64,000 bases of DNA from Candidatus Lustribacter sp. Lineage in GTDB: Bacteria; Vulcanimicrobiota; Vulcanimicrobiia; Vulcanimicrobiales; Vulcanimicrobiaceae. Below are positions 37,969 through 53,189 of the stretch, in pieces (position 1 is the first letter of the stretch; each line of letters begins with the position of its first letter). The stretch is taken from positions 1 through 64,000 of the forward strand of contig OZ255842.1 in NCBI GenBank assembly GCA_965277805.1, written 5' to 3'. The notes under the pieces were generated by a model, which did not search any database, was not told the DNA's origin, and worked only from the letters and a program-made list of their open reading frames with translations. The translations under genes were made by a program, and so were the position numbers.

Positions 37969-40050
37969 TCAGATCACTTCTGCAATGAGCTCGGCGGCTT
38001 TGCCGGCACCGTTGCCGACTGGTCGATACACGGGGGAGCGGCACAGCTCCGCCGCAATCGCGTCAGCGATGTCATCGGTATCCGCCTGGCCATAGTCCAT
38101 ACAACGGCCGGCGCCGTAACGCTCCAAACGATGGCGGACGTGGTAGTTTTGCTCGAAGTGGTGCCTGAGAGGGAAGTAGATGAATGGACGTCCCGCAGCC
38201 GTCAGCTCCATGGTGGTCGTGAGACCGCCCTGCACGAGCGCGAGATCGCAGACCGCGAGGTGACGGTAGAGATCCGGTACGTAGGCGTGCAGTTCGAGAC
38301 CGGTATGCACCGGTAAACACGCCGGGTCGATTCGTGGTCCGGCGACGACGATCATCCGCAGTTGCGGCACGCGACGTTTCGCCTTGGGGTACGCCGCGAT
38401 AATCCGGCGGAGGAGCGCGACGCCGACACCGGAACCGCCGACCGTCACAATACAGACGGCCTCATCCGCGCGATAGCCGAAGCGGTCGCGCCATTCTTCG
38501 TGCTCGGCAGGCGTGGGCGGCACAAATCCGCTGACGTAGCCGGGGAAATCGTAGTGGGACTCGGTCCATGAACGAATTTGCGGCAGGCCGGGGCCGAAAC
38601 TGGCCGGCACGATGTCATCGGGCTCGCCGACGAAGATGGAACGATCGCGCAGGTTCGGATGGCGCTCGATGTGCTCGATCATCTCGGCGTTGTAGTCGGC
38701 GGTGATGCGCCGTTCGTAATCGCCGCCGTCAGGCATCGGAAGCCAGCCGACGAAATCGGTCATCCACACGAACGCGGTCCGCTTCTCGTTAGGATTCTCA
38801 TGCAGGTAGTAATCGACGTCCCAGGCCTCGTCGCCGACGACGAGATCGAATTGCTCTTCCCGCAGCAGATCGTAGAACACCATGAAGTTGTTGACGAGGA
38901 TCTCATCCATCCGGCGGATCGACTGGAATGCATGGAGATCGTGGTCGCCGCACTCGCTTTCGCAGTGCGCGGATTCGTTGACGAGGGCGGCGCTCGCCGA
39001 ATGGATCGTCTCGCCCCGCCGGCGCAACACTTCGGTGACCGGGTGTTGCGCGAGCCATTCGATATCGAGATCCGGACGCAGCCGGCGCAGTTCGGCCGCT
39101 ATTGCTGCGTCGCGCTGAGCGTGGCCGAGGCCGATCGGCGATGAAATGAACAACGCGCGTTTGCGCCGGCTGCGTCGCGGTTTGGACGCGGGGCGAGGCA
39201 GCAGCGCGTCGCGAATCTCTGCATTGACCCTCAGCGGGTTACGCGCCTGTGGGAGATGACCGCTGCCTTCGAGCAGGACGAAGCGGCCGTTGGTCGCCTC
39301 AGCGAGCGCCAGTCCGCGTTCCTTGGGTACGATGCGGTCGGCGTTGCCGTGCAGCACGAGCACCGGGCACTGCACCTTCGCGGCGAGCTCGTGCGCTTCC
39401 GCATCACTGAGCTGCGGCGCGAGGACGGTCGCTGCGAGCGTCTCAGGTGTCGTATCCAGCGCCCATCCGACGGCGTCTTCGAACGGTTTGGTCGAATGCG
39501 GCTCCGGCAACGCTTTGCTGAAGAAGAATTCGACGAAGTCCAGGTAGTTGGTACGCCAGTAGTTTCGATTGAATTTCGTCCAGCCGTCGTGGCGTTGGTA
39601 TTCTTCGTCAAACGAAGCGACCGCGGCGGCGCGGTCCGGGTCGCCGGCGGCGAGCGGCACGGCCGGCGCAATGCAGATAAGGTGCTCGACGCGCTCGGGA
39701 TGGCGGCCCGCCACCATCAGCGCCCACCGCGCGCCGGCCGACAGTGCGACCAGCGCCGCGCGCGCGGTGTTGGTCGCGTCCAGCACCGCGAGAGCGTCAG
39801 CCGCGAAGTCTTCGTCGGAATAATCGAGTTCGGGCGTTTTGTCGGAACGCCCGTTGCCACGTCCGTCGAAGGTAACGACCCGCGCGTGGCGCGCGAAGTA
39901 AGGAATCTGCGCTTTCCAAATGCGCGAGTGGACGATCGACCAGGCCGGTAAGAACAAGATCGTTCGCTCGCCGCTACCGTACACGTCGTAAGCGATTCGA
40001 ACTCCGTTCCGCAGAGCGTAGCCCGACTCGACCGGCTCGAGCGCCCTCAC
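37969..40050 (-). CDS. alpha/beta hydrolase - GT-B glycosyltransferase fusion protein
   Basis: N-terminal FDGRGNGRSD, ALSAG, HG.AD, GSGH; C-terminal SSPIGLGH..RD, TVGGSG, QGGLTTTMEL, HFEQ (GT28-like). Confidence 0.85.
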   Translation of the reverse strand: MRALEPVESGYALRNGVRIAYDVYGSGERTILFLPAWSIVHSRIWKAQIPYFARHARVVTFDGRGNGRSDKTPELDYSDEDFAADALAVLDATNTARAALVALSAGARWALMVAGRHPERVEHLICIAPAVPLAAGDPDRAAAVASFDEEYQRHDGWTKFNRNYWRTNYLDFVEFFFSKALPEPHSTKPFEDAVGWALDTTPETLAATVLAPQLSDAEAHELAAKVQCPVLVLHGNADRIVPKERGLALAEATNGRFVLLEGSGHLPQARNPLRVNAEIRDALLPRPASKPRRSRRKRALFISSPIGLGHAQRDAAIAAELRRLRPDLDIEWLAQHPVTEVLRRRGETIHSASAALVNESAHCESECGDHDLHAFQSIRRMDEILVNNFMVFYDLLREEQFDLVVGDEAWDVDYYLHENPNEKRTAFVWMTDFVGWLPMPDGGDYERRITADYNAEMIEHIERHPNLRDRSIFVGEPDDIVPASFGPGLPQIRSWTESHYDFPGYVSGFVPPTPAEHEEWRDRFGYRADEAVCIVTVGGSGVGVALLRRIIAAYPKAKRRVPQLRMIVVAGPRIDPACLPVHTGLELHAYVPDLYRHLAVCDLALVQGGLTTTMELTAAGRPFIYFPLRHHFEQNYHVRHRLERYGAGRCMDYGQADTDDIADAIAAELCRSPVYRPVGNGAGKAAELIAEVI

Positions 40051-40664
40051 TCGGCGCGCTGCTTTTCCCAGCGCTGCAACAAGTTGTCGATCATTTTCAG
40101 CATCGAGTCGTGGCCCGCATCGTAATCGATCAACCGTTCGAGCAGCAGACCGAGGTTGAACGTACGCACGAGCGTCGTCACCGCATCGGCCGGGAACTTC
40201 CGCCGGTCGACGCCGTAGGCTTTAAGCGCGTTCGCAATCGCCTCGCCGAGTACTGCGTTCCACTGCTCATGGACGTGCTGCAGCCGCTCGCGGAACTCAG
40301 GCCGGTTCCAGGCCATAGCCTCGAGCTCGAACCAGATCTTGGGATAGCCTGAGGCAAGATCTTCGTCGATGAAGTTCATCGCTTTGCGCCACTTTTCGAT
40401 GAATGGGACGCCGCGAGCGGCGTACATTGCGCGTTGTCGAACGAGGACGCGGTCGGTGAAGCGCTCGAACACGCGTATCAACAGCTCTTCCATCGAGCCG
40501 AAGTAATAATGCACCAAGCCGTGGTTGGCTCCGGCTTCAAGCGCGAGTTTTCGCGTCGTGATCATCGCGTAGCCTTCACGTACGAGCAGGCGTTCCGCGG
40601 CATCGAGGAACGCCTGCTCCGTTTCGCGGCGGGAAACCGAAATGCCGGCCGGGTTTCGGCTCAG
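40047..40664 (-). CDS. TetR/AcrR family regulator (start uncertain; CTG at 40664 proposed)
   Basis: TEQAFLDAAERLLVREGY..ITTRKLALEAGANHGLVHYYFGS HTH. Confidence 0.85.
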   Translation of the reverse strand: MSRNPAGISVSRRETEQAFLDAAERLLVREGYAMITTRKLALEAGANHGLVHYYFGSMEELLIRVFERFTDRVLVRQRAMYAARGVPFIEKWRKAMNFIDEDLASGYPKIWFELEAMAWNRPEFRERLQHVHEQWNAVLGEAIANALKAYGVDRRKFPADAVTTLVRTFNLGLLLERLIDYDAGHDSMLKMIDNLLQRWEKQRAE

Positions 40665-41749
40665 TGCTTGACCTCGTAGACGATGTTGAACGGTGTCTGG
40701 GTGGCCCGGCGGAAATGCTTCAGACCGGCGTCGTCGACGACCTGATGCATGCGCGCTTCTCCGGCCTGTGCGCCAAGCGCCAAGCCTACTTCTTGCGAGA
40801 GCGAGGCGGGCGTGCACAGGAGAGTCGACGCAGCGTAGAAGATGCGCCCGACCGGGTTGAGGTTATCCTCGAGCCGATCGCCGGCGAACGGTTCGACCAG
40901 CATCCAGGTACCGTCGGACGCCAGCGCTTCACGCACGTGCTTGGCCGCGCCAACGGGATCGCCCATGTCGTGCAAGCAGTCGAAGTACGTAATCAGGTCG
41001 TAGTCCTCGCCGGGAAAATCCTTGGCGCTTGCGACATCAAATTTGACCCGGTCCGACACGCCGGCTGCCTTCGCCCGCTCCCGCGCCAATTCGATCGACC
41101 CGCTGTGATAGTCGAAGCCCTGAAAGATCGAGTTGGGATAGGCTTGGGCCATAATGATCGTCGAGGCGCCGAGCCCGCAGCCGATGTCAGCCACCTTGGC
41201 GCCCGTACGCAGCTTGCCTTCGACGCCGGCGAGTGCGGGGATCCACTCGGCGACGAGATGCGCGTTGTAGCCGGGTCGAAAGAAGCGCTCCGTGCCTTCG
41301 AAGAGCACGGGGCTGTGCTCGTGCCAGCCGAATCCTTTGCCGGTGCGGAAGCGCTCGGTGATCTGCGGCTCGGCCGCCATCATGGCTTCGACGATTTGGA
41401 ATGCGCCGTGCATGAACAAGGGACTCGTGTCGTCAGCCAGCATGAACGCCTGTTCGGGCGGCAGCGCGAAGCGCTGCGTCGCCGCATCGTACTCAACGTA
41501 GCCGCTCGCGGCCTGGTTCGAGAGCCATTCACGCACGTAACGCTCGTTCGTGCCGGTGCGCGCCGCGAGTTCGTTCGAGGTCAGCGCCTCGCCTTTGGCT
41601 AGCTCGCGGTAGAGCCCGACTTTATCGCCGATGATCGTCAGGACGGCACTCATGGCCGCGCCGAGGTCGCCGAGCATTTTGCCGACGAACGCATTGAGCT
41701 TATCAGGATCGGGTGACTTGGCTGGTGGCCGGTCTGTCTCGGTATCCAT
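40661..41749 (-). CDS. class I SAM-dependent methyltransferase with N-terminal wHTH (Rv2258c-like)
   Basis: ELAARTGTNERYVREWL, VADIGCGLG, FDCLHDMGDP, LGAQAGE. Confidence 0.9.
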   Translation of the reverse strand: MDTETDRPPAKSPDPDKLNAFVGKMLGDLGAAMSAVLTIIGDKVGLYRELAKGEALTSNELAARTGTNERYVREWLSNQAASGYVEYDAATQRFALPPEQAFMLADDTSPLFMHGAFQIVEAMMAAEPQITERFRTGKGFGWHEHSPVLFEGTERFFRPGYNAHLVAEWIPALAGVEGKLRTGAKVADIGCGLGASTIIMAQAYPNSIFQGFDYHSGSIELARERAKAAGVSDRVKFDVASAKDFPGEDYDLITYFDCLHDMGDPVGAAKHVREALASDGTWMLVEPFAGDRLEDNLNPVGRIFYAASTLLCTPASLSQEVGLALGAQAGEARMHQVVDDAGLKHFRRATQTPFNIVYEVKH

Positions 41750-41779
41750 AGCCGTGCTCTCCTCAATCAGGCACGTGTC

Positions 41780-41795
41780 TTAGTCAGATGACTAA
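41780..41795. promoter_or_regulatory. putative TetR operator upstream of the methyltransferase operon
   Basis: Dyad TTAGTCA-GA-TGACTAA, next to the near-palindrome AGGCACGTGTCT. Confidence 0.55.
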
Positions 41796-41883
41796 CCTAC
41801 CGCGATGGATACAGCGTGTCAATACCTTCCCAGGGCGCTTGCCGGGCGGGGTGCGCGCGATTTCGCTCGAAAAACACGCTCCT

Positions 41884-42999
41884 ATGAGCGGTGTACGCGT
41901 CTTGGTCGGAACGCGAAAGGGAGCGTTCGTTCTCACATCGGACGAAAGGCGCAGACGCTGGGACGTCGGCGGTCCGTACTTCGCCGGCTGGGAGATCTAT
42001 CACGTTACGGGCTCCCCGGCCGATCCGAACCGGCTTTACGCCTCGCAGTCCAGCAGCTGGTTCGGGCAGGTGATGCAGCGCTCCGACGACGGCGGCACGA
42101 CCTGGGCACCAGTCGGAAATACGTTTGCGTACGATGGTGTCGCCGGAACGCACCAGTGGTACGACGGCACGCCGCACCCGTGGGAGTTTGCGCGTGTGTG
42201 GCATCTCGAACCGTCGCTCACCGACCCCGATACTGTGTACGCCGGCGTCGAAGATGCCGCACTCTTTCGTTCGACCGACGGGGGCGGGAGCTGGCACGAA
42301 CTCTCCGGTTTGCGCGGCCACGGCACGGGCCCGGCGTGGCAGCCCGGCGCCGGCGGAATGTGCCTGCACACCATCATCCTGGATCCGCACGATTCGCAGC
42401 GCATCTTCGTCGCCATATCGGCCGCTGGGGCGTTCCGCAGCGACGACGGCGGTACGACATGGCGGCCGATCAACCGTGGGCTGATTTCGGAACAGATCCC
42501 CGATCCGCAAGCGGAGATCGGCCACTGCGTGCATCGCCTGGCGATGCACCCCAGCAGACCGTCGGTACTGTTCATGCAAAAGCACTGGGACGTCATGCGC
42601 ACCGACGATGCCGGTGAGAATTGGCGCGAGGTCAGCGGCAACTTGCCGACCGACTTCGGCTTCGCAATCGACGTGCACGCGCACGAGCCGGAGACGATCT
42701 ACGTCGTCCCGATCAAGAGCGACTCGGAGCACTTCCCGCTCGACGGTCAGCTGCGCGTGTACCGTAGCCGAAGCGGAGGCGACGAATGGGAAGCGCTCAC
42801 GAACGGCTTGCCGCAACGTGATTGCTACGTCAACGTTTTGCGCGATGCGATGGCCGTCGACTCATGCGATCCGTGCGGCGTGTACTTCGGGACGACCGGT
42901 GGGCAGGTCTACGCGTCGAGCGATGCGGGCGACCACTGGTCGCCGATCGTTCGCGATTTGCCGGCGGTGCTTTCGGTCGAAGTCCAGACGCTGCCGTGA
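41884..42999 (+). CDS. BNR/Asp-box repeat beta-propeller protein (sialidase-like fold)
   Basis: LVGTRKG N-terminus; multiple RSDDGGTTW / RSTDGGGSW / SSDAGDHW Asp-boxes; no signal peptide. Confidence 0.88.
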
Positions 43000-43292
43000 T
43001 CCGCGTTGTGCTCCCAGCGCACTTGAAGGTGCTGGCGCGCGTCAGCGGCGAGGTGCAGCTCGAAGTCGACGGTGCTGCGACTCAGCGTTCCGTTCTCGAC
43101 GCGCTGGAAGCCGGGTTTCCGGCGCTGCGCGGAACGATTCGCGACCAGGCAACGAAACGGCGGCGGCCGTTTGTTCGGTTTTTCGCCTGCGAGCGCGACC
43201 TCTCGCACGAGTTGCCCGACGCACCGCTGCCGGAAGCCGTCACGACGGGCGCCGAGCCGCTGCTGGTCGTCGGCGCGATGGCCGGAGGCTAG
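42996..43292 (+). CDS. MoaD/ThiS family ubiquitin-like protein
   Basis: GTGA overlap; 98 aa ending in AMAGG (C-terminal di-Gly). Confidence 0.88.
43249..43292 (+). repeat. 44-bp direct repeat, left copy (3' end of the MoaD/ThiS gene)
   Basis: GCGCCGAGCCGCTGCTGGTCGTCGGCGCGATGGCCGGAGGCTAG; 41/44 identical to 49026-49069. Confidence 0.95.
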
Positions 43293-43300
43293 CCGGGCCG

Positions 43301-44326
43301 CTATGTACGAGCAGACGATTCTCTGGCAATAAGTGTCGGAAGCCGGGCCGTAACTTTTTGCGCGTGCGGTCCGGTCTCGATTTGATCGAGGAGTAATTCG
43401 ATCGCCAACTTGGCGACGTCCGCGAGATGCAGATTGACCGCGGTGAGATTTGGCAGGCTTTCGCGAGCCCGGATGCCGTCATATCGCGTCGCAACGAGGA
43501 CCGCTTGGGGAACCGGTTTCGCAAGCTCGTCCAACGCGCGCACCGCTCCGGTCGCGAAGGTGTCGACGAGAGCTAAGATGCCGTCCACGCTCGGATGCGC
43601 GCGCAGCATTCCTCGCGTTGCAGCGTAGGCGGCGTCTTCGCCGCCGCGCTCATCGATCCGTACGGCGACTGGTTCGATGTCGTAGGTGCGCGCGAACTTC
43701 GAATAGGCTGACTCGGTCTCGAGGTACGAGTTTCGCCGCGTCTCGCCGGTCATAAGGGCGATGTGCTTGGCACCACGCTCACGCAGATGGTCTAAGAGCA
43801 TGCGCGCCGTCTCCCGCGAACGGATATCGATCGAGGCGACGTCGGTCATTGCGGGTGCTTTCCCAATCGTCACCATGGGGACGGCGCGAGCGCGCAATTG
43901 CGTGATGTACGGGTCGTGTGCGCTTGGTTCGAGCACGACGGCCGCGTCGATCGCGAGTTTGTCGAGTCGCAGCGGCTCGTTCGAGATCGAGGGGACAAGC
44001 AAGAGTGCGAAGCCGTGTTCCAACGCCGTGACGGCCGCCGTCGCGGCAATTTCCATCAAGAAGCCCAGGCGCGAGACATCGCTCGAAATGGCAAACGGCA
44101 TCGATGAGAAGATGGCGATGGTCCCGATGCCGGTCGTCCGCATCCGCCGGGCGTGCACGTTCGGCGTGTAGCCGAGTTGAGCGGCAACTTCGCTAATGCG
44201 GCGCTTCGTCGTCGGGCCCACAGACCGGCGATCGTTGAAGGCGTTCGAGACGGTGGCGGGAGAGACGCCGGCCTTTCTTGCGACGTCCACGATGGTCGGG
44301 CGGCCGCGAACGGGACGATTAGCCAC
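43301..44326 (-). CDS. LacI family transcriptional regulator
   Basis: PTIVDVARKAGVSPATVSNAFN, LGYTPN..AR, LIARES. Confidence 0.93.
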   Translation of the reverse strand: MANRPVRGRPTIVDVARKAGVSPATVSNAFNDRRSVGPTTKRRISEVAAQLGYTPNVHARRMRTTGIGTIAIFSSMPFAISSDVSRLGFLMEIAATAAVTALEHGFALLLVPSISNEPLRLDKLAIDAAVVLEPSAHDPYITQLRARAVPMVTIGKAPAMTDVASIDIRSRETARMLLDHLRERGAKHIALMTGETRRNSYLETESAYSKFARTYDIEPVAVRIDERGGEDAAYAATRGMLRAHPSVDGILALVDTFATGAVRALDELAKPVPQAVLVATRYDGIRARESLPNLTAVNLHLADVAKLAIELLLDQIETGPHAQKVTARLPTLIARESSART

Positions 44327-44387
44327 TTGTCCTTTACTCCCCAGGCTCGCTTAGCCGAATTGCGGTAGTGCCGCACTCCAGCATGAG

Positions 44388-44401
44388 GTAAAACGTTTTA
44401 C
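44388..44401. promoter_or_regulatory. putative LacI-family operator
   Basis: Perfect 14-bp palindrome GTAAAACGTTTTAC with a LacI-type AAACGTTT core, immediately before ATG 44403. Confidence 0.7.
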
Positions 44402-44402
44402 T

Positions 44403-45530
44403 ATGAGCGGCTCCACGGCCTTTCGAGTCGATCAAGTGACCGACCGGCGGCGAACGACCGGACTGATCGCCCACGATCCGGCGCGCAGCGCGGGCGGCTT
44501 CACGCTGATCGCTCCCCAGACCGACGACGGCAACGTCTACCTTGTGGCGATCGACGGAACCGTGGCCCATCATTGGAAGCTTCCCGTTCGCCCGGGCCGG
44601 CATGCTGTGATTCTGCCGAACGGAAATCTCGGTTATAACGGCAACCACCCTGATACACCGAACCTTTATCCGGCCTGGGAGATGTGGCACGGTGGCGACT
44701 TCTACGAAGTGACGCCGGCCGGTGAGATCGTTTGGCGGTTCGAGGACAAGCGTCATCACCACGACGCGGAATGGCTGCCCGACGGAGATCTGCTCTACAC
44801 GACCGCGCAGGTGATGCCGCCGGAGTGTGCGCGAAAGATCGCCGGCGGGAGTCACGCGCACGATCTTCCGGAGGGCGTTCAATACGGTGACGTCGTCCGG
44901 CGCGTGAATCGTGCCGGCAGCGTGACGTGGGAGTGGAAGGCCTGGGAGCATCTTGACCCGGCCGACTATCCGATCCATCCAATCTTCGATCGTTACCACT
45001 GGCCGATGATCAATGGCGTGCATCTGACGCGTGCAGGGCACGTGCTGCTCAGCCTTCGGACGACATCGGGCGTTATTGCGGTCGATCCACAATCCGGCAG
45101 CGTGCTGTGGTCGATCAAACATCCGCTGCTGGCACAGCAGCATGCGCCGGTCGAGCTTGAGAACGGGAACGTGTTGATCTTTGATAACGGCAACGTGCGC
45201 CCCGGCGTGACGTCGCCACATTCGCGTGCGGTCGAGTTCGAGCCGCACGCGCAAACCGTCGCATGGGAGTATACCGATCCGATGCGACCCTATTTCTTTT
45301 CGCCATATATGGGTAGTGCGCAGCGGCTCGGTAACGGCAATACATTCATAACAGAATCCGCGTTCGGGCGCCTCTTTGAAGTAACGCCCGGCGGAGAAAC
45401 CGTTTGGGAGTATATCATTCCGCAGTTTGGTGAGTATCCGTCCGGCGCCGCGCGTGATTACTCTGCCGGTGCTTCCAACAGCGTGTTCAAAACGTTCCGC
45501 TATTCGCACCAACAGCTTCCCTGGCTCTAG
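44403..45530 (+). CDS. aryl-sulfate sulfotransferase (ASST)-like beta-propeller protein, no signal peptide
   Basis: HHDA..LP.G, WEW..WEH, LLSLR, QQH, LIFDNG, SRAVE, GSAQRL.NGNT.ITE motifs. Confidence 0.8.
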   Translation: MSGSTAFRVDQVTDRRRTTGLIAHDPARSAGGFTLIAPQTDDGNVYLVAIDGTVAHHWKLPVRPGRHAVILPNGNLGYNGNHPDTPNLYPAWEMWHGGDFYEVTPAGEIVWRFEDKRHHHDAEWLPDGDLLYTTAQVMPPECARKIAGGSHAHDLPEGVQYGDVVRRVNRAGSVTWEWKAWEHLDPADYPIHPIFDRYHWPMINGVHLTRAGHVLLSLRTTSGVIAVDPQSGSVLWSIKHPLLAQQHAPVELENGNVLIFDNGNVRPGVTSPHSRAVEFEPHAQTVAWEYTDPMRPYFFSPYMGSAQRLGNGNTFITESAFGRLFEVTPGGETVWEYIIPQFGEYPSGAARDYSAGASNSVFKTFRYSHQQLPWL

Positions 45531-45550
45531 GTCGGCTTGTGAAAGGACCC

Positions 45551-46519
45551 ATGAAACACTTGCTCCGGCGACTTCCGCTTCTTGCGTTTTGCTTTGCGCT
45601 TGCCCTAGCGTCGGTCGCGGTTCCCGCACGCGCCGACGTGCCGACCGTGCGAATCTTGATGGACTGGTTCATTCAAGCCGATCAGGCCGGGTTCTGGCAA
45701 GAACAGATCGACGACCTCGGCAAACCGTACGGCGTGAAGGTTGCGGTGTTGCAGGGCGGTCCCAAGATCCAAACGATTCCCCAAGTCGCTTCGGGTCAGG
45801 CGGAGTTTGGGATCGGCAATGCCGACGACATCATATTGGCGCGCGTTCACGGCGTTCCGGTGCGCGCCGTGTTCGCATTTATGAATTTCGTTCCATACGA
45901 CCTGGTCTACCATCCCGATCTTAAGGTGCGGACGCTGAGCGACCTGAAGGATAAGACCTTTGCGGTCAACATCGGCTTCGGTTATTGGGAGTGGCTGAAA
46001 CAGCACTATCACCTCGGGAACGTGCATGAGATTCCGGTCACCGGCGACCTGACGCTCTTCAAGCTTAACCCCGACATGGTGCAACAAGGCTATACGATCT
46101 TCTTACCGGCCCGATTTGACGAGTTGCATGTGCCGAATGCCCAATTCCGGGTCTCGGACCTCGGCTATCGACCGTACGCAACGCTGTTCACGACCGATGA
46201 GATGATCAAAGATCATCCCGACCTCGTCCGAAACATGGTCGCTGCGGCCAAAAAAGGCTGGGAAAACTTCCTTGCTGATCCGTCGAAATTCAAAGCGTTG
46301 GCGCTCGGCATGAACGGTCAGATCAGTGCCGCCGTGAACGATCGTGCTGTCGCGGAACTCGAAGGAACGTTAGTCCCGCACGACCATGCGAAGATCGGAT
46401 GTATGACCGACGCCCGCTGGAGCGAGCTGACGAAACAATTGCAATTGGTGAATATGGTTCCGGGCAACTTCGATTCCAAGCAAGCCTACACGCTCTCGAT
46501 GGAGCCGGGCTGCAAGTAG
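45551..46519 (+). CDS. ABC transporter substrate-binding protein, NMT1/THI5 family
   Basis: Signal peptide; DWF.QA.Q.GFW, QGGP, GY.PY. Confidence 0.85.
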   Translation: MKHLLRRLPLLAFCFALALASVAVPARADVPTVRILMDWFIQADQAGFWQEQIDDLGKPYGVKVAVLQGGPKIQTIPQVASGQAEFGIGNADDIILARVHGVPVRAVFAFMNFVPYDLVYHPDLKVRTLSDLKDKTFAVNIGFGYWEWLKQHYHLGNVHEIPVTGDLTLFKLNPDMVQQGYTIFLPARFDELHVPNAQFRVSDLGYRPYATLFTTDEMIKDHPDLVRNMVAAAKKGWENFLADPSKFKALALGMNGQISAAVNDRAVAELEGTLVPHDHAKIGCMTDARWSELTKQLQLVNMVPGNFDSKQAYTLSMEPGCK

Positions 46520-46522
46520 GTC

Positions 46523-47275
46523 ATGACCACCGGTGCGTCCGTCTCGCTCAGTGGAGTCTCGAAGACGTACGATTCGGGTTTGCGCGCGCTCGAGCCGGTC
46601 GACGCCGAGATCCGGCGTGGCGAATTCGTTTCGATCGTCGGTCCGTCGGGCTGCGGTAAATCGACCCTCCTGCGTATCATTGCCGGCCTTTTGCCGGCGT
46701 CGGAGGGCGCATGCGAGCGGTCGAGCGATGGGACGGCGGCGTTCGTCTTTCAGGAAGCCGCGCTGTTGCCGTGGCGCAACGTGCAGAAGAACGCCGAACT
46801 GCTGATGGAACTCGAAGGCGTTCCGCCCGGCGAACGGACCGAGAAGGCTGCACGCACACTCAAACTCGTCGGACTCGAGGGGTTCGAGCGGTCGTATCCG
46901 CACAATCTTTCGGGTGGGATGCGGATGCGTTTGTCGCTGGCGCGCAGTATCGCCCTCCAACCCAGTTTGCTCTTGCTCGATGAGCCGCTCGCGGCTGTCG
47001 ACGAGCTGACGCGCGACGTGCTTCAGGAAGAGTTGTCCCAACTTTGGCAGGCGCAAGGATTTACGGCACTGCTCGTCACGCACAATGTGCACGAAGCGGT
47101 CTTCCTTTCGAACCGCGTTGTCGTCATGTCGAAGCGGCCGGGACGCATTTTGCGCATGATCGACGTGCCGTTCGCTTTCCCTCGCTCTCCTGAGCTCCGC
47201 TCAACGGGGGAGTTTGCGCATTTGACTGGGACAGTGTCGGCGGCGCTGCGAGAGGGTCGCGCCGATGGCCGTTAA
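46523..47275 (+). CDS. ABC transporter ATP-binding protein (TauB/SsuB-like)
   Basis: GPSGCGKST, LLPWR, LSGGMRMR, LLDEP, VTH. Confidence 0.93.
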   Translation: MTTGASVSLSGVSKTYDSGLRALEPVDAEIRRGEFVSIVGPSGCGKSTLLRIIAGLLPASEGACERSSDGTAAFVFQEAALLPWRNVQKNAELLMELEGVPPGERTEKAARTLKLVGLEGFERSYPHNLSGGMRMRLSLARSIALQPSLLLLDEPLAAVDELTRDVLQEELSQLWQAQGFTALLVTHNVHEAVFLSNRVVVMSKRPGRILRMIDVPFAFPRSPELRSTGEFAHLTGTVSAALREGRADGR

Positions 47276-48059
47276 CGCGATTCGCGCGGCCACTCGCTAT
47301 TCGGCGCCCGCCATCGTCGCTATCGTGATGGTCGCACTCTGGTTTATTCTCACGGCCACGGTCTACGCCGGACGCGCCTACTTGGTACCCGGCCCGCTCG
47401 ACGTTGCCGATGCGTTCATAGCTAACGGATCTGCCATCTTTGCAGCGACGCTGATTACGCTGCGTGAGGCGCTGGCCGGCTACCTCGCCGCCATCGTTCT
47501 CGGCGTGTCGATCGCGGCGCTCCTGAGCACCTGGCGGCCACTGGAACGCGGCCTCTACCCGTACGCGGTCTTGCTGCAAACGGTTCCGATCGTAGCCGTC
47601 GCTCCCCTCATCGTCGTATGGTTCGGCTATAACGACCTTTCGGTCATCATCATCAGCCTGATCATGGCGCTGTTTCCGATCATCAATAACACGTTGCTCG
47701 GTCTTCGTTCTACGTCGCGCAATCTGGTCGATTTGTTTGCTATGCACCACAGCGGACCGATCGTCACGTTTACCCAGCTCCGGTTCCCGAGTGCCTTTCC
47801 CCATGTGCTTGCGGGATTACGCATTTCTGCGGGTCTCTCGGTGATCGGTGCGATCATCGGTGAGTTCATCATCGGTTCCGGGAACTCGCGCGGCGGTCTG
47901 GGTGTGCAGATCATCTTTGCTCAAGGGCGGATGTACACGGCGTTACTATTTGCCGAAATCATCTGTGCTACGTTGCTCGGCTTCGCGTTCTTTTCGGTCG
48001 TGACGATCGTCGGGGACCGTTTGCTTTCGCACTGGCATGAATCCGCCGTATCGAATTGA
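47265..48059 (+). CDS. ABC transporter permease (TauC/SsuC-like)
   Basis: QTVPIVAVAPL..WFG, FPI..NT..GL, GLRI....S.IGAI.GEF. Confidence 0.92.
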   Translation: MAVNAIRAATRYSAPAIVAIVMVALWFILTATVYAGRAYLVPGPLDVADAFIANGSAIFAATLITLREALAGYLAAIVLGVSIAALLSTWRPLERGLYPYAVLLQTVPIVAVAPLIVVWFGYNDLSVIIISLIMALFPIINNTLLGLRSTSRNLVDLFAMHHSGPIVTFTQLRFPSAFPHVLAGLRISAGLSVIGAIIGEFIIGSGNSRGGLGVQIIFAQGRMYTALLFAEIICATLLGFAFFSVVTIVGDRLLSHWHESAVSN

Positions 48060-48072
48060 GGGGGGAACCTAC

Positions 48073-49026
48073 ATGAGCCAGAGCATTCCGATCGTCGATC
48101 TTTCGCGATGGCAAAGCGGCGATGAGAATGACCGGGAACGGATCGCGCGCGAGTTCGATCACGCCTGCCGCGAGTGGGGCTTTGCCGTGGTCGCCGGCCA
48201 CGGCGTTCCGCCCGAGCTGATGTCGGAGATCAATCGCGTCAGCAAGGCGTACTTCGACCTTTCGCCGGAGGCGAAGCTGGCGGTCAATACCACCGGCCGG
48301 CAAGGCGGTCGCGGATATTACGCACTCAAGGAAAAATCGCACGCGCGCACCCGCGGCGACGTGACGGCACCGGGCGACCTGCGTGAGTCATTTCGAATGG
48401 GGGACGCGAGCGCACCGAACGTCTGGCCGGAGATGCCCGGCGATATGGGTGAGATTTGGTCGGCGTACTTCGCAGCGCTCAATGGGCTGGGTGTCGATCT
48501 GATGCACGTCGCGGCGCGAGCGCTGGGTCTACCGGATGGATGGTTCGATGACAAGATGGATCGGCCGGCTTCCGTCTTGGCTGCGCAGCATTACCCGGCG
48601 TTGGACGCGGTGCCCGTTCCCGGCCAGTTGCGAAGCGGCGCGCACACCGACTTCGGAAATCTGACGATGCTGCTGACCGAAGATAAACCCGGTGGACTCG
48701 AGATCATGGGGCTCGACGGCCTTTGGCATCCGGTGAAGCCGTTACCCGGCACGTTCATTATCAACATCGGCGACTTGATGGCGCTGTGGACAAACGATCG
48801 CTGGCGCTCGACGCTCCATCGCGTCGTCAATCCCCCGCCGGAAGCCCATGACTCCTCGCGCCGGCTCTCGATCGTTTTCTTCTACGAAGTAAACGACGAT
48901 GCGCTCATTGAGTGTATCTCAACCTGCGTCGATGCCGAGCATCCTGCAAAGTACGTTCCGATCCGTGCCGGAGAGCATATCGCCGCTAAATTGCGAAGTG
49001 TCGAGACCGCCGCGTCGGCACGATAG
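48073..49026 (+). CDS. 2-oxoglutarate/Fe(II) dioxygenase, isopenicillin N synthase family
   Basis: IPIVDLS, ACREWGF..V.GHG, HTDFG.LT.L, NIGD....WTND...STLHRV, RLSI.FF. Confidence 0.92.
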   Translation: MSQSIPIVDLSRWQSGDENDRERIAREFDHACREWGFAVVAGHGVPPELMSEINRVSKAYFDLSPEAKLAVNTTGRQGGRGYYALKEKSHARTRGDVTAPGDLRESFRMGDASAPNVWPEMPGDMGEIWSAYFAALNGLGVDLMHVAARALGLPDGWFDDKMDRPASVLAAQHYPALDAVPVPGQLRSGAHTDFGNLTMLLTEDKPGGLEIMGLDGLWHPVKPLPGTFIINIGDLMALWTNDRWRSTLHRVVNPPPEAHDSSRRLSIVFFYEVNDDALIECISTCVDAEHPAKYVPIRAGEHIAAKLRSVETAASAR

Positions 49027-49069
49027 CGCCGAGCCGCTGCTGGTCGTCGGCGCGATGGCCGGCGGCTGA
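49026..49069 (+). repeat. 44-bp direct repeat, right copy (orphan MoaD/ThiS 3' end)
   Basis: GCGCCGAGCCGCTGCTGGTCGTCGGCGCGATGGCCGGCGGCTGA still encodes [13 protein letters not shown]. Confidence 0.95.
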
Positions 49070-49403
49070 GACGCGGTTAGGGAAAAGGTTCGCGTTCTGC
49101 GATTACGGCAGCATCCAGTACAGAAGCCGGGCTGAAGCGGCAAAGACAGCGTCCCCTGATATCGCCCTGACATCGGAAACCTAATGTTGAGTGCTTCCCA
49201 ATCCCATGTCCGCAGCAGCACCGAACCATCTCACCCAACCAGCTTACCGGGGGATGAAAGGGCTCACGCGAGCTACTCGTCGCGCTGTTTCGCACGATGA
49301 GGTGACGGCTAAGCATTTGGCAAACAGCTTCCGGTTGTCGGATCGATCTCCATCACGTGCATTCTCTCCCGCCGTCATTCTATTGCTTGTTCGCGCAGGC
49401 TAA

Positions 49404-51364
<1,961 letters not shown>

Positions 51365-51373
51365 CCTATACGC

Positions 51374-51799
51374 CTACGCGAAGCTCGCTTTGCTTTCCCC
51401 GACTTCGATGAGGTAGCCGTCAGGATCGCGGAGGTAGCAACACGTCTCGCCGGCCTTGTCCTTCGGCTCCGTGATGAATTCGGCTCCGCGGTCTCGCCAG
51501 AGCTTATAACACGCTTGAATATCAGCAACTCGGATGTTCAAAAAGCTGCTGACCGTATTCAGATCAGCCGGAACGCTGAGGGTGACCGTTGGTTTGTCCG
51601 GGGTCGGGCCGCCGCCGAAATAGAGAATGAGCCACGTATTCGCGATTTGAACGAACGCGGGCAAGCCGCTGTTGTTCCCCCTGGCGACAATGCGGCCATC
51701 GAAGACGGTTTCGTAGAATCGAACCGACCGATCGACGTCTGCCACCGTGAGAAAATGCGCGACGGTAAAGCCGTCGCGCGGCGGTATCTCATACTTCAC
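51374..51799 (-). CDS. VOC/glyoxalase family protein
   Basis: LTVADVDRS..FY, NIRVADI, RDPDGYLIE. Confidence 0.9.
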   Translation of the reverse strand: MKYEIPPRDGFTVAHFLTVADVDRSVRFYETVFDGRIVARGNNSGLPAFVQIANTWLILYFGGGPTPDKPTVTLSVPADLNTVSSFLNIRVADIQACYKLWRDRGAEFITEPKDKAGETCCYLRDPDGYLIEVGESKASFA

Positions 51800-52242
51800 T
51801 AACCGTACGTTACCCCCGGATAGCTTTGTCCGACCTCGATGATGTAACCGTCAGGATCGCGGATATAGCAACGTGTCTCGCCCACCTTGGGCTTGGGCTC
51901 GGTGATGAACTCGGCTCCTCGGCTCCGCCAGAGTTCATAACACGCTGCAATATCCGCAACGCGGATATTCATAAAGCTGCTGACTTTGTCGGGATCGGGC
52001 GGTACGCTCAGCGTTACGGTCGGTTTATCGGGAGTTGGGCCACCCCCGACGTTGACGATGAGCCACGTGTTCGCGATCTGGATGTATCCAGGGTCACCTG
52101 TGCTCAGAATGCGCCCGCCAAAGATTTTTTCATACCATCGCAACGACCGCTCGATGTCGGCGACCGTTAAAAAGTGCGCGACGGTGATGCCCTCGGGCGG
52201 CGGCATCTCGTAGGTTTTATGTTCGACTTGTACGTTGTTCAC
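51799..52242 (-). CDS. VOC/glyoxalase family protein (tandem paralogue); GTG start 52242 after GGAG
   Basis: LTVADIERS..WY, NIRVADI, RDPDGYIIE; highly similar to its neighbour. Confidence 0.88.
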   Translation of the reverse strand: MNNVQVEHKTYEMPPPEGITVAHFLTVADIERSLRWYEKIFGGRILSTGDPGYIQIANTWLIVNVGGGPTPDKPTVTLSVPPDPDKVSSFMNIRVADIAACYELWRSRGAEFITEPKPKVGETRCYIRDPDGYIIEVGQSYPGVTYG

Positions 52243-52283
52243 TTGACCACTCCAATTCAGATAGAGAGCAATTGTTGCGAAAT

Positions 52284-53189
52284 TCACGGGACGAGCAGGA
52301 CCTTTCCGATGCCGCCTTTGGTAAACGCGGCCTGCGCGGCGCCCGCGTTCTCCAGCGCGTCTCGGCGACCGATCGGGATGCTCATCTTGCCCGCGTCGAC
52401 GGCATCGGCGATGAAGGCAATTCCCGCTCGGTCTTGCTTCGAGCGGAACGAGACGACGCGGACGTTCGGATAATCCCTGCTGCCGTCGGGCGCGCCCGTC
52501 ACGGAGGCAAACGTTCCCCCGTCCTTGACTTTCGCGAGAAGATCCGTCGCCGATGTACCGCGCAGTGTGTTGGCGACCACGTCGACTTGCGGAATGGCGG
52601 CGAAGGCGGCCGCGTCGTCGAGCGCAATCGTTTCGTCAGCGCCGATACTCGCCGCTTGATCGAGTTGAAAACGCCGGACGCCGGCGATCACGTGGGCGCC
52701 GAACGACTTCGCCATGAAGACCGCACATCGTCCGACGGCGCCCGCCGCACCGGAGACCAGCACCGTCTGGCCGCGTTGCAAACCGCTGGCGACGGAAATC
52801 AATTGGCTGCCCGTAAGGCCCACGATGGGAAGTGCGGCCGCGTCGACCAGGTCCATCGTCTCCGGCACCTTGGCGAAAAAAGTCGCTTTGTCGGCAACGA
52901 GCTCCGCATACGTATGATACGACCACCCGCAGACGCGATCGCCCGCCATGAGGTCGGTAACGCCGTCGCCGGTCGCGATCACCGTTCCCGACACGTCGAG
53001 GCCGATGATCGCCGGAAACCGCAACTGCCAACCCTCGACTTGATCGTTGCGCTCCTGGATGTCTTCAGGATTGATACCGATGCCGGCCACCCGGATCAGC
53101 ACGTCGCCCGCGCCCGGCACGGGATCCGGCATGTCCTGATATTTCATGACTTCCGGGCCGCCGTACGCGGTCACCACCGATGCTTTCAC
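52284..53189 (-). CDS. NADP-dependent quinone oxidoreductase-like (MDR) protein
   Basis: YGGPEV, P.PGAGDVLIRV, G.DVSG.V, AAALP.VGLT, GAAGAVG, GKVLL; GTG start 53189. Confidence 0.88.
   Translation of the reverse strand: MKASVVTAYGGPEVMKYQDMPDPVPGAGDVLIRVAGIGINPEDIQERNDQVEGWQLRFPAIIGLDVSGTVIATGDGVTDLMAGDRVCGWSYHTYAELVADKATFFAKVPETMDLVDAAALPIVGLTGSQLISVASGLQRGQTVLVSGAAGAVGRCAVFMAKSFGAHVIAGVRRFQLDQAASIGADETIALDDAAAFAAIPQVDVVANTLRGTSATDLLAKVKDGGTFASVTGAPDGSRDYPNVRVVSFRSKQDRAGIAFIADAVDAGKMSIPIGRRDALENAGAAQAAFTKGGIGKVLLVP

Follow-up and report, generated by a model that had tools for sequence, protein, structure and literature searches.

A duplicated moaD gene end beside an ASST/ABC/2OG operon in Vulcanimicrobiota, a probable scar of recombination between related genomes

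How does the 3′ end of a small ubiquitin-like gene come to stand a second time, as an orphan, on the far side of an operon? The question arises in a window of 64,000 nt (positions 1 to 64,000 of contig C1, GenBank OZ255842.1) from the genome of Candidatus Lustribacter sp. (GCA_965277805.1; 5,533,281 nt [5.53 Mb]; here G000), where the last 44 nt of a moaD-like gene recur downstream and the two copies bracket a lacI gene plus a five-gene operon for an arylsulfotransferase (ASST)-like protein, an ABC transporter, and a 2-oxoglutarate (2OG)-Fe(II) oxygenase, a 5.7-kb set of nutrient-uptake genes here referred to as “the cassette.” An earlier note on this DNA had proposed either an attL/attR-like scar of a cargo islet mobilized in trans or recombination with a donor carrying a homologous gene end. 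Our best reading is the latter: a recombination scar of a known kind in an uncultured lineage, with the case for a mobile element unsupported. Illegitimate recombination, homology-facilitated or at a border of homology, has probably left an orphan 3′ piece of a moaD allele at its breakpoint, and the second copy would be that piece.

The repeat pair and the sister species

The features that carry the argument are as follows.

43249–43292, + strand: repeat copy 1, the last 44 nt of the live moaD-like gene
49026–49069, + strand: repeat copy 2, an orphan moaD 3′ end with the tail GGC GGC TGA, part of no plausible gene
49016–49071: 56-nt block, present in G000 and absent from the sister species, its placement ambiguous by 2 nt (CG)
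49010–49076: 7-nt inverted repeat, CCGCGTC (49010–49016) and GACGCGG (49070–49076), bracketing the 56-nt block, from the comparison with the sister species
49054–49115: support interval of a change point in divergence, best estimate 49083

A search of the window bears out the repeat as first described, with 41/44 identity on the same strand and differences of GGA/GGC and TAG/TGA; exactly two sites match at three or fewer mismatches, and none did so in 100 dinucleotide shuffles. The first 37 nt are identical between the copies, and all three differences fall within the last 7 nt. This 37-nt core, again at three or fewer mismatches, occurs exactly twice in the whole genome (0 for a reversed-pattern control) and the repeat is therefore not multi-copy, which disposes of the possibility, raised in the earlier note, of a multi-copy genomic 44-mer. 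In a genome-wide scan for exact direct repeats of at least 28 nt lying 0.3 to 40 kb apart, the moaD pair stands alone; the other pairs are mostly runs of paralogues, a repetitive extragenic palindromic (REP)-like element, or a Gly-rich gene cluster. The likeness to moaD begins abruptly at 49026, and a DNA profile built from 21 other moaD alleles matches precisely 49026–49069 (E 3.6e-9). Leftward extension of the repeat was considered and rejected: gapped extension scored 0, a score equaled or exceeded by all 2,000 random pairs of window 60-mers, and a likeness by eye of 8/12 positions left of copy 2 is unsupported, as the same profile reaches no further left than 49026.

Copy 2 is probably a non-functional fragment. 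Between 42500 and 50000 there is no Rfam match at E ≤ 1, a promoter scan was empty, and terminator-like sites are no commoner than in shuffles. The DNA fold at copy 2 is likewise no better than that of shuffles (z −0.63), and the single open reading frame (ORF) across it is a 58-codon stop-to-stop frame.

The locus was compared at the DNA level with six relatives (G003, G006, G002, G007, G005, and G012), of which G003 is the sister species. G003 is collinear with window positions 38000 to 50974 (13 kb) at 95.6% identity, cassette included, and shares the moaD-lacI junction with the same GGA GGC TAG tail, but it has no copy 2. Missing from G003 is the 56-nt block, which carries the final three codons of the oxygenase gene (its stop among them), the whole of copy 2, and 2 further nt; at this site G003 reads a small palindrome, CCGCGTCGCGG. 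Its oxygenase ends three codons further into the shared downstream DNA (...AASRLG followed by the stop, versus ...AASAR followed by the stop in G000). Between 37.4 and 49.1 kb, indels of at least 3 nt separate the two genomes only at the two cassette junctions, where G003 has 18 additional nt (at 43294) and G000 has 56 (at 49016). Such confinement to the junctions is the behavior that would be expected of scar DNA free to erode.

In all four cassette-free genomes of the same genus that we examined (G006, G002, G007, and G005), the moaD-like gene ends GGC GGC TGA, like copy 2; the live gene in G000 and G003 ends GGA GGC TAG. A perfect core, differences clustered at the end, and a sharp left limit are as expected for a join or crossover between diverged alleles, and the pattern would fit such an event, not a fresh duplication followed by drift. 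A target-site duplication, in which a staggered double-strand break in the moaD end took up the cassette (by end joining and fill-in) with duplication of 44 nt, and the last codons of the live copy then changed, would account for a direct duplication of the target without a recombinase and for a cassette trimmed tightly to its genes. It would, however, require copy 1 to have changed at three of its final 7 nt while the remaining 37 nt stayed unaltered in both copies, all of this before G000 and G003 split, and it leaves both the absence from G003 and the step in divergence described below unexplained; we consider it very unlikely. A transposon was also considered and rejected, with no transposase in the 42 ORFs scanned between 25 and 64 kb, no inverted repeats marking the cassette ends among the pairs listed, and a duplication of 44 nt. 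Transposon target duplications are usually 2 to 14 bp.

Could the second copy be an artefact of a metagenome-derived genome, through a chimeric consensus or wrong phasing through the repeat? The estimated contamination of the G000 genome is 5.9%, and one contig from run X3 joins 42860 to 49044, in a sample that holds related organisms with TGA-type moaD ends. Independent k-mer contigs from three runs of one sample nevertheless reproduce both unique junctions of copy 2 with 0 differences and at a depth like that of neighboring DNA: one contig piece (43256–49055) covers the oxygenase end into the repeat, and another (49033–49595/49800) covers the repeat into the TGA and the downstream DNA. The contigs break inside the 37-nt repeat and hence do not phase the two copies, and they contain neither a skip of the 56 nt nor a cassette-free join from the source organism, though contigs drop rare variants. 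A 37-nt repeat is trivial for reads longer than ~100 nt, and the left junction is independently confirmed in G003, where no repeat exists. The misassembly that the earlier note wished to see checked is thus, on our assessment, extremely unlikely.

A divergence step at copy 2 and the origin of the proposed scar

Left of 49083, G000 and G003 diverge by 3.2%; right of it, they diverge by 9.7%. This change point gains 53.8 log-likelihood units over a single rate (2-lnL support, 49054–49115) and coincides with the right edge of copy 2. Genome-wide, the identity of 1-kb fragments has a median of 95.4% (interquartile range, 93.8 to 96.4; 10th percentile, 90.1; 153/180 fragments aligned). Against this background, the left part is ordinary to slightly conserved, and the right block is a divergent recombination patch edged at copy 2. 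Of the two proposals in the earlier note, recombination with a donor carrying a homologous gene end is the one that fits both the genus-typical tail of copy 2 and the sharp breakpoint.

We infer the mechanism and the direction of the event from comparative sequence. Host recombination between related genomes would pair homologous DNA on one side and make an illegitimate join at the homology border on the other, and no dedicated integrase would be needed. This route is known as homology-facilitated illegitimate recombination (HFIR), or recombination “at the border”; PMC5361080 cites Prudhomme 2002 and de Vries & Wackernagel 2002 as primary papers on it. HFIR is documented in transformable bacteria; as set out in PMC3240628, homology anchors one side while the other is joined illegitimately, with indels and with foreign DNA trapped at the border, and no dedicated recombinase takes part. 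PMC5361080 invokes it for displaced gene ends and orphaned 3′ regions. Our locus is like these cases in that the tract boundary coincides with the junction (49083) and the orphan fragment differs from the resident allele; it differs in that the reading here is drawn from comparative sequence, with only 2 nt of microhomology and no donor found.

Two histories would fit about equally well. In the first, the cassette would have arrived in the common ancestor with its own moaD end (GGA GGC TAG), displacing the native end (GGC GGC TGA) downstream. G003 would later have lost the 56-nt block; slippage across the bracketing 7-nt inverted repeat, or an exchange that brought in its right-hand region, might have caused the loss. 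In the second, the ancestor would have resembled G003, with the cassette and no duplicate, and the right-hand region of G000 would later have been replaced from a more distant relative in which moaD directly preceded that region, trapping the last 44 nt of the donor’s moaD at the homology border. The second history has fewer events and fits the position of the block exactly at the border. That the repeat arose through insertion of the cassette is, accordingly, not an established premise; the block may have been added later, in G000 only.

Several points weigh against recombination at a homology border in one or the other of these forms. The second history leaves ~10 nt before copy 2 unexplained; the first explains them as the natural oxygenase end and needs one more event. 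Microhomology at the ends of the 56-nt block is limited to CG (2 nt), a weak signature of an illegitimate join. Identity at 37/37 positions between diverged alleles requires a close donor, strong conservation, or later gene conversion. Caution over the 56-nt difference also comes from the assembly of G003, which is 72% complete and has numerous 1-nt indels beyond 49.3 kb. A donor was sought and not found. G006, G002, G007, G005, and G012 share only the moaD-like gene and the BNR-repeat gene next to it, with unrelated DNA on both sides. The empty allele that the earlier note suggested looking for, here taken as moaD followed directly by the sequence from 49072 onwards, was not found in these five relatives or in G355, a genome in which no moaD or BNR gene lies within 22.6 kb of the orthologue of the first gene of the right block. 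No genome or metagenome contig was found with the parental arrangement of moaD next to the downstream region, and no outgroup with the junction was found. A genus-wide DNA search for the junction returned G003 only, and an order-wide oxygenase search returned nothing closer than 54%. A scan of metagenome contigs with the oxygenase gave 59 pattern matches and 0 relatives, and one with a 20-mer of the oxygenase end gave 10 loci, none with wider similarity to window positions 42000 to 51000.

None of the comparisons made polarizes the 56-nt indel: no outgroup has the junction, the C termini of oxygenase homologues are too variable in length and sequence for it to be read from them, and a relative-rate test is uninformative. 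For the right block with G355 as outgroup, that test counted 171 changes specific to G000 and 78 specific to G003 (p 4e-9), and for the BNR-moaD pair it found a milder excess in the same direction with five outgroups (25 to 30 versus 15 to 24); of these five outgroups, only one gives a significant difference between the right block and the pair (p 0.02 to 0.73 across the five). We set the test aside and did not use it because, under a clock, an import cannot be polarized in this way.

Entry of the cassette by RecA-driven Campbell integration of a circle carrying it together with ~44 nt of a moaD end, G003 later losing the 56 nt, would give the same tail pattern and perfect core and would also place an abrupt limit of moaD likeness at 49026, as at the joint of a circle, again with no integrase needed. 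The origin of such a circle is ad hoc, however; a homology of 44 nt is near the minimum that homologous recombination needs; and both the later deletion in G003 and a separate event for the step in divergence at 49083 are required. We regard this entry route as improbable. Recombination at a homology border is the reading that we prefer. The locus illustrates mosaic recombination in an uncultured lineage, dated and at base resolution. It also urges caution, as a tidy direct repeat that restores a gene end can come from host recombination between related genomes, with no mobile element needed.

The cassette without an integrase

The cassette consists of the following features.

43293–43300: spacer of 8 nt from the moaD stop to the lacI stop; 26 nt in G003, with the 18 extra nt
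43301–44326, − strand: LacI-family regulator, 341 amino acids, convergent on moaD (Pfam PF00356, PF13377; NCBIfam LacI-family matches below equivalog cutoffs)
44403–45530, + strand: ASST-like beta-propeller protein, 375 amino acids (Pfam PF05935, PF14269)
45539–46519, + strand: NMT1/THI5-type ABC substrate-binding protein (Pfam PF09084)
46523–47275, + strand: ABC transporter ATPase (Pfam PF00005)
47265–48059, + strand: ABC transporter permease (Pfam PF00528)
48037–49026, + strand: 2OG-Fe(II) oxygenase, 329 amino acids, ending ...AASAR (Pfam PF14226, PF03171)

The repeats enclose lacI and the five genes almost exactly, as the earlier note observed. The cassette is tightly packed and has no non-coding arms, with 8 nt beyond the end gene on the left and 0 nt on the right, where the oxygenase stop (49024–49026) overlaps copy 2 by one base. 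In composition it is mildly distinct: its GC content of 60.7%, versus 64.3% for the genome, lies at the 5th percentile of genome windows, and GC content at third codon positions is 0.71 to 0.74 in all six cassette genes versus 0.785 to 0.80 in four flanking genes. Its tetranucleotide distance is not unusual.

Is this, then, a small integrative islet bearing a mimic of the moaD end and inserted by a recombinase encoded elsewhere? The tight bracketing by direct repeats, the Gly-Gly end kept by the live gene, and the lower GC content would all suit such an islet, as would a copy 1 tail off the genus norm and a copy 2 tail on it, the outcome of a crossover within the 37-nt core. For genomic islands, attachment at the 3′ end of a protein-coding gene is not unusual, contrary to a remark in the earlier note. 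The islet reading fails one of the three refutation tests set in that note: G003 keeps the cassette at the same position without the duplicated end, its would-be attR. No integrase, transposase, or relaxase domain was found in a Pfam scan of 42 ORFs between 25 and 64 kb (12 + 30 proteins), which agrees with the note’s own statement that no integrase accompanies the cassette, and the two genomic copies of the 37-mer leave no other islets using this site. We therefore judge mobilization in trans unlikely; the site is used again neither in this genome nor in the class genomes compared next.

Of 385 genomes of the class, 248 contain a match to a degenerate gene-end pattern. By our reading of the match table, only G000, G371, and G377 have more than one match; each of the five found in G371 and G377 proved to be a BNR-moaD gene pair (degraded in one case), and G000 alone has an orphan copy, with none in the 384 other class genomes. 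Different cargo at the moaD end, another sign that the earlier note proposed to look for, was not seen in the class comparison. The 385-genome tally takes in the unpublished genomes G015, G036, G125, G199, G211, G236, and G363 (at most one match each), and a tally of 41 related genomes given below takes in G015 and G036; apart from these two tallies and the none-of-384 count, nothing here depends on unpublished genomes.

Homologous cassettes, with 49 to 76% amino acid identity per gene, occur in the genus at other loci. An ASST protein scan of genome contigs kept 80 loci; the closest public records for the lineage are labeled Candidatus Eremiobacterota. ASST homologues are 72 to 75% identical in four other loci labeled Eremiobacterota or Vulcanimicrobiota and mostly 56 to 63% identical (one 51%) in 75 other kept loci, many of them from Burkholderiales. 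At the seven other cassette loci that we examined among the 80, there is no moaD or BNR match (0/7), a further point against a moaD-specific islet. The convergent neighbor of lacI is a ketoacyl-synthase-like gene at L066, L127, and L076 (two loci of G004, and L076) and a different gene at the cassette locus of G002 (L086).

Separately, in run X5, a soil metagenome from another study, short contigs are ~90% identical to parts of the cassette (window 44052–49011). In one X5 contig, 305 nt long, the match ends at 49011, immediately short of the 56-nt block, and a further 69 nt follow.

How far does the locus resemble known systems? In C-terminal displacement arrays (Rhs, contact-dependent inhibition [CDI], and type VI secretion system [T6SS] effector loci), an incoming module brings a new gene end and the old 3′ end is shifted downstream as an orphan, for which HFIR is proposed in PMC5361080. 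Our orphan, in contrast, is 44 nt of a housekeeping-type ubiquitin-like gene, from a single event and not an array, and the place of a toxin-immunity pair is taken by an operon for catabolism or uptake. Elements that integrate at tRNA or protein 3′ ends, genomic islands among them, are alike in their flanking direct repeats, restored gene end, and element-derived tail on the attL side, whereas here there is no integrase, no recurrent site, and no non-coding arms, and the sister species has the cargo without attR. Elsewhere in this genome, a 35-nt piece of tRNA-Ala(CGC) is repeated 19.5 kb apart (C1:5086382 and C1:5105871, outside the window), and the interval holds NTP_transf_8, DUF5677, and kinase/PP2C/VWA genes and several ORFs without a family, with no integrase in the 16 ORFs scanned. 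We dropped this repeat as a positive control for an integrative element, as an integrase was not detected there either.

The perfect, in-frame 37-nt repeat would allow RecA-type recombination to pop the cassette out and leave an intact moaD, although this was not observed. If the repeat does mediate such loss, the cassette would be a reversible accessory trait in G000 and a fixed one in G003, which shows that the cargo is stable without the repeat. A bolder proposal, which we rate as distinctly unlikely, is that the cassette is an integrase-free module that hitchhikes on homology, bearing 44 nt that imitate the best-conserved part of a ubiquitin-like gene found widely; RecA alone would insert it (Campbell-type) behind that gene in any relative and excise it precisely through the 37-nt in-frame repeat, always keeping the Gly-Gly gene intact, and loss of the right repeat would have fixed it in G003.

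The target gene and the right-hand region

The remaining features flank the cassette.

41788–42999, + strand: BNR/sortilin-Vps10-like beta-propeller gene, 403 amino acids (Pfam PF15902, PF02012, PF13088; NCBIfam F510_1955-family match below cutoff)
42996–43292, + strand: moaD/ThiS/SAMP-like beta-grasp gene, 98 amino acids, the live copy, ending GGA GGC TAG (from translation)
49072–49457: 386 nt preceding the oxidoreductase gene, with neither a convincing ORF nor an Rfam match (ORF, Rfam, and promoter scans)
49458–50810, + strand: pyridine nucleotide-disulfide oxidoreductase, 450 amino acids, first gene of the divergent right block (Pfam PF07992, PF02852)

The assignment of the target gene to the MoaD/ThiS ubiquitin-like type held up by predicted fold; by sequence the protein is a divergent member. 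It has no Pfam match even at E ≤ 10, its match to NCBIfam SAMP1 is weak (E 0.0065; 17 bits versus a cutoff of 60), and a profile search of PDB sequences reached SAMP1 at E 0.65. An AlphaFold model (18 homologues; mean predicted local distance difference test [pLDDT] 89.2, predicted template modeling score [pTM] 0.81) had as its best Foldseek matches SAMP1 (3po0; E 1.1e-5, template modeling [TM] scores 0.74/0.81), then CysO and MoaD. The C-terminal Gly-Gly (G97, G98) is invariant in 18/18 aligned sequences. The protein is present in 30 of the 41 related genomes. Its gene adjoins the BNR gene in every relative locus examined, and in the window the BNR stop overlaps the moaD-like start (GTGA). 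The BNR gene and the 98-amino-acid Gly-Gly beta-grasp gene thus form a conserved, translationally overlapping pair (window 41788–43292; loci L004 to L028 and L056 to L060).

On the other side of the cassette, orthologues of the oxidoreductase were found only in G003 and G355 (83% amino acid identity). Across the whole window (compared with G003:C2:442031–505082), identity between G000 and G003 is a mosaic, with divergent patches also at 0 to 7 and 21 to 24 kb: ~91% at 0 to 7 kb, ~96% at 7 to 21 kb, ~87% at 21 to 24 kb, ~95% at 27 to 37 kb, ~97% at 37 to 49 kb, and ~91% at 49 to 64 kb. Nothing in the G003 stretch compared corresponds to window positions 24.7 to 27.3 kb. Indels of 1 nt split the G003 oxidoreductase, methylpurine glycosylase, and glyoxalase genes into several frames (L023 12107–14827, corresponding to window 49458–52287); these broken frames would be either pseudogenes or local assembly errors. 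Ten of the 15 small indels lie within 49.8 to 52.3 kb; at window position 50975, 258 nt are missing from G003, and at 51363 it has 140 nt more than G000. The − strand carries two neighboring glyoxalase-family genes (51374–51799 and 51799–52287) that look like a tandem duplicate, each ~77% identical to the other’s G003 counterpart.

Two minor observations concern the repeat classes met in the 28-nt scan. The REP-like unit of ~30 nt recurs on both strands across C1 (e.g., 2122038–2245315 and 3618514–3771177), and the Gly-rich gene cluster, at 3.46 to 3.48 Mb, is full of GCC/GCCG repeats. Within the moaD-like protein, finally, all five amino acid differences between G000 and G003 fall in residues 37 to 55 (window 43105–43160), a cluster that may be a small recombination patch.

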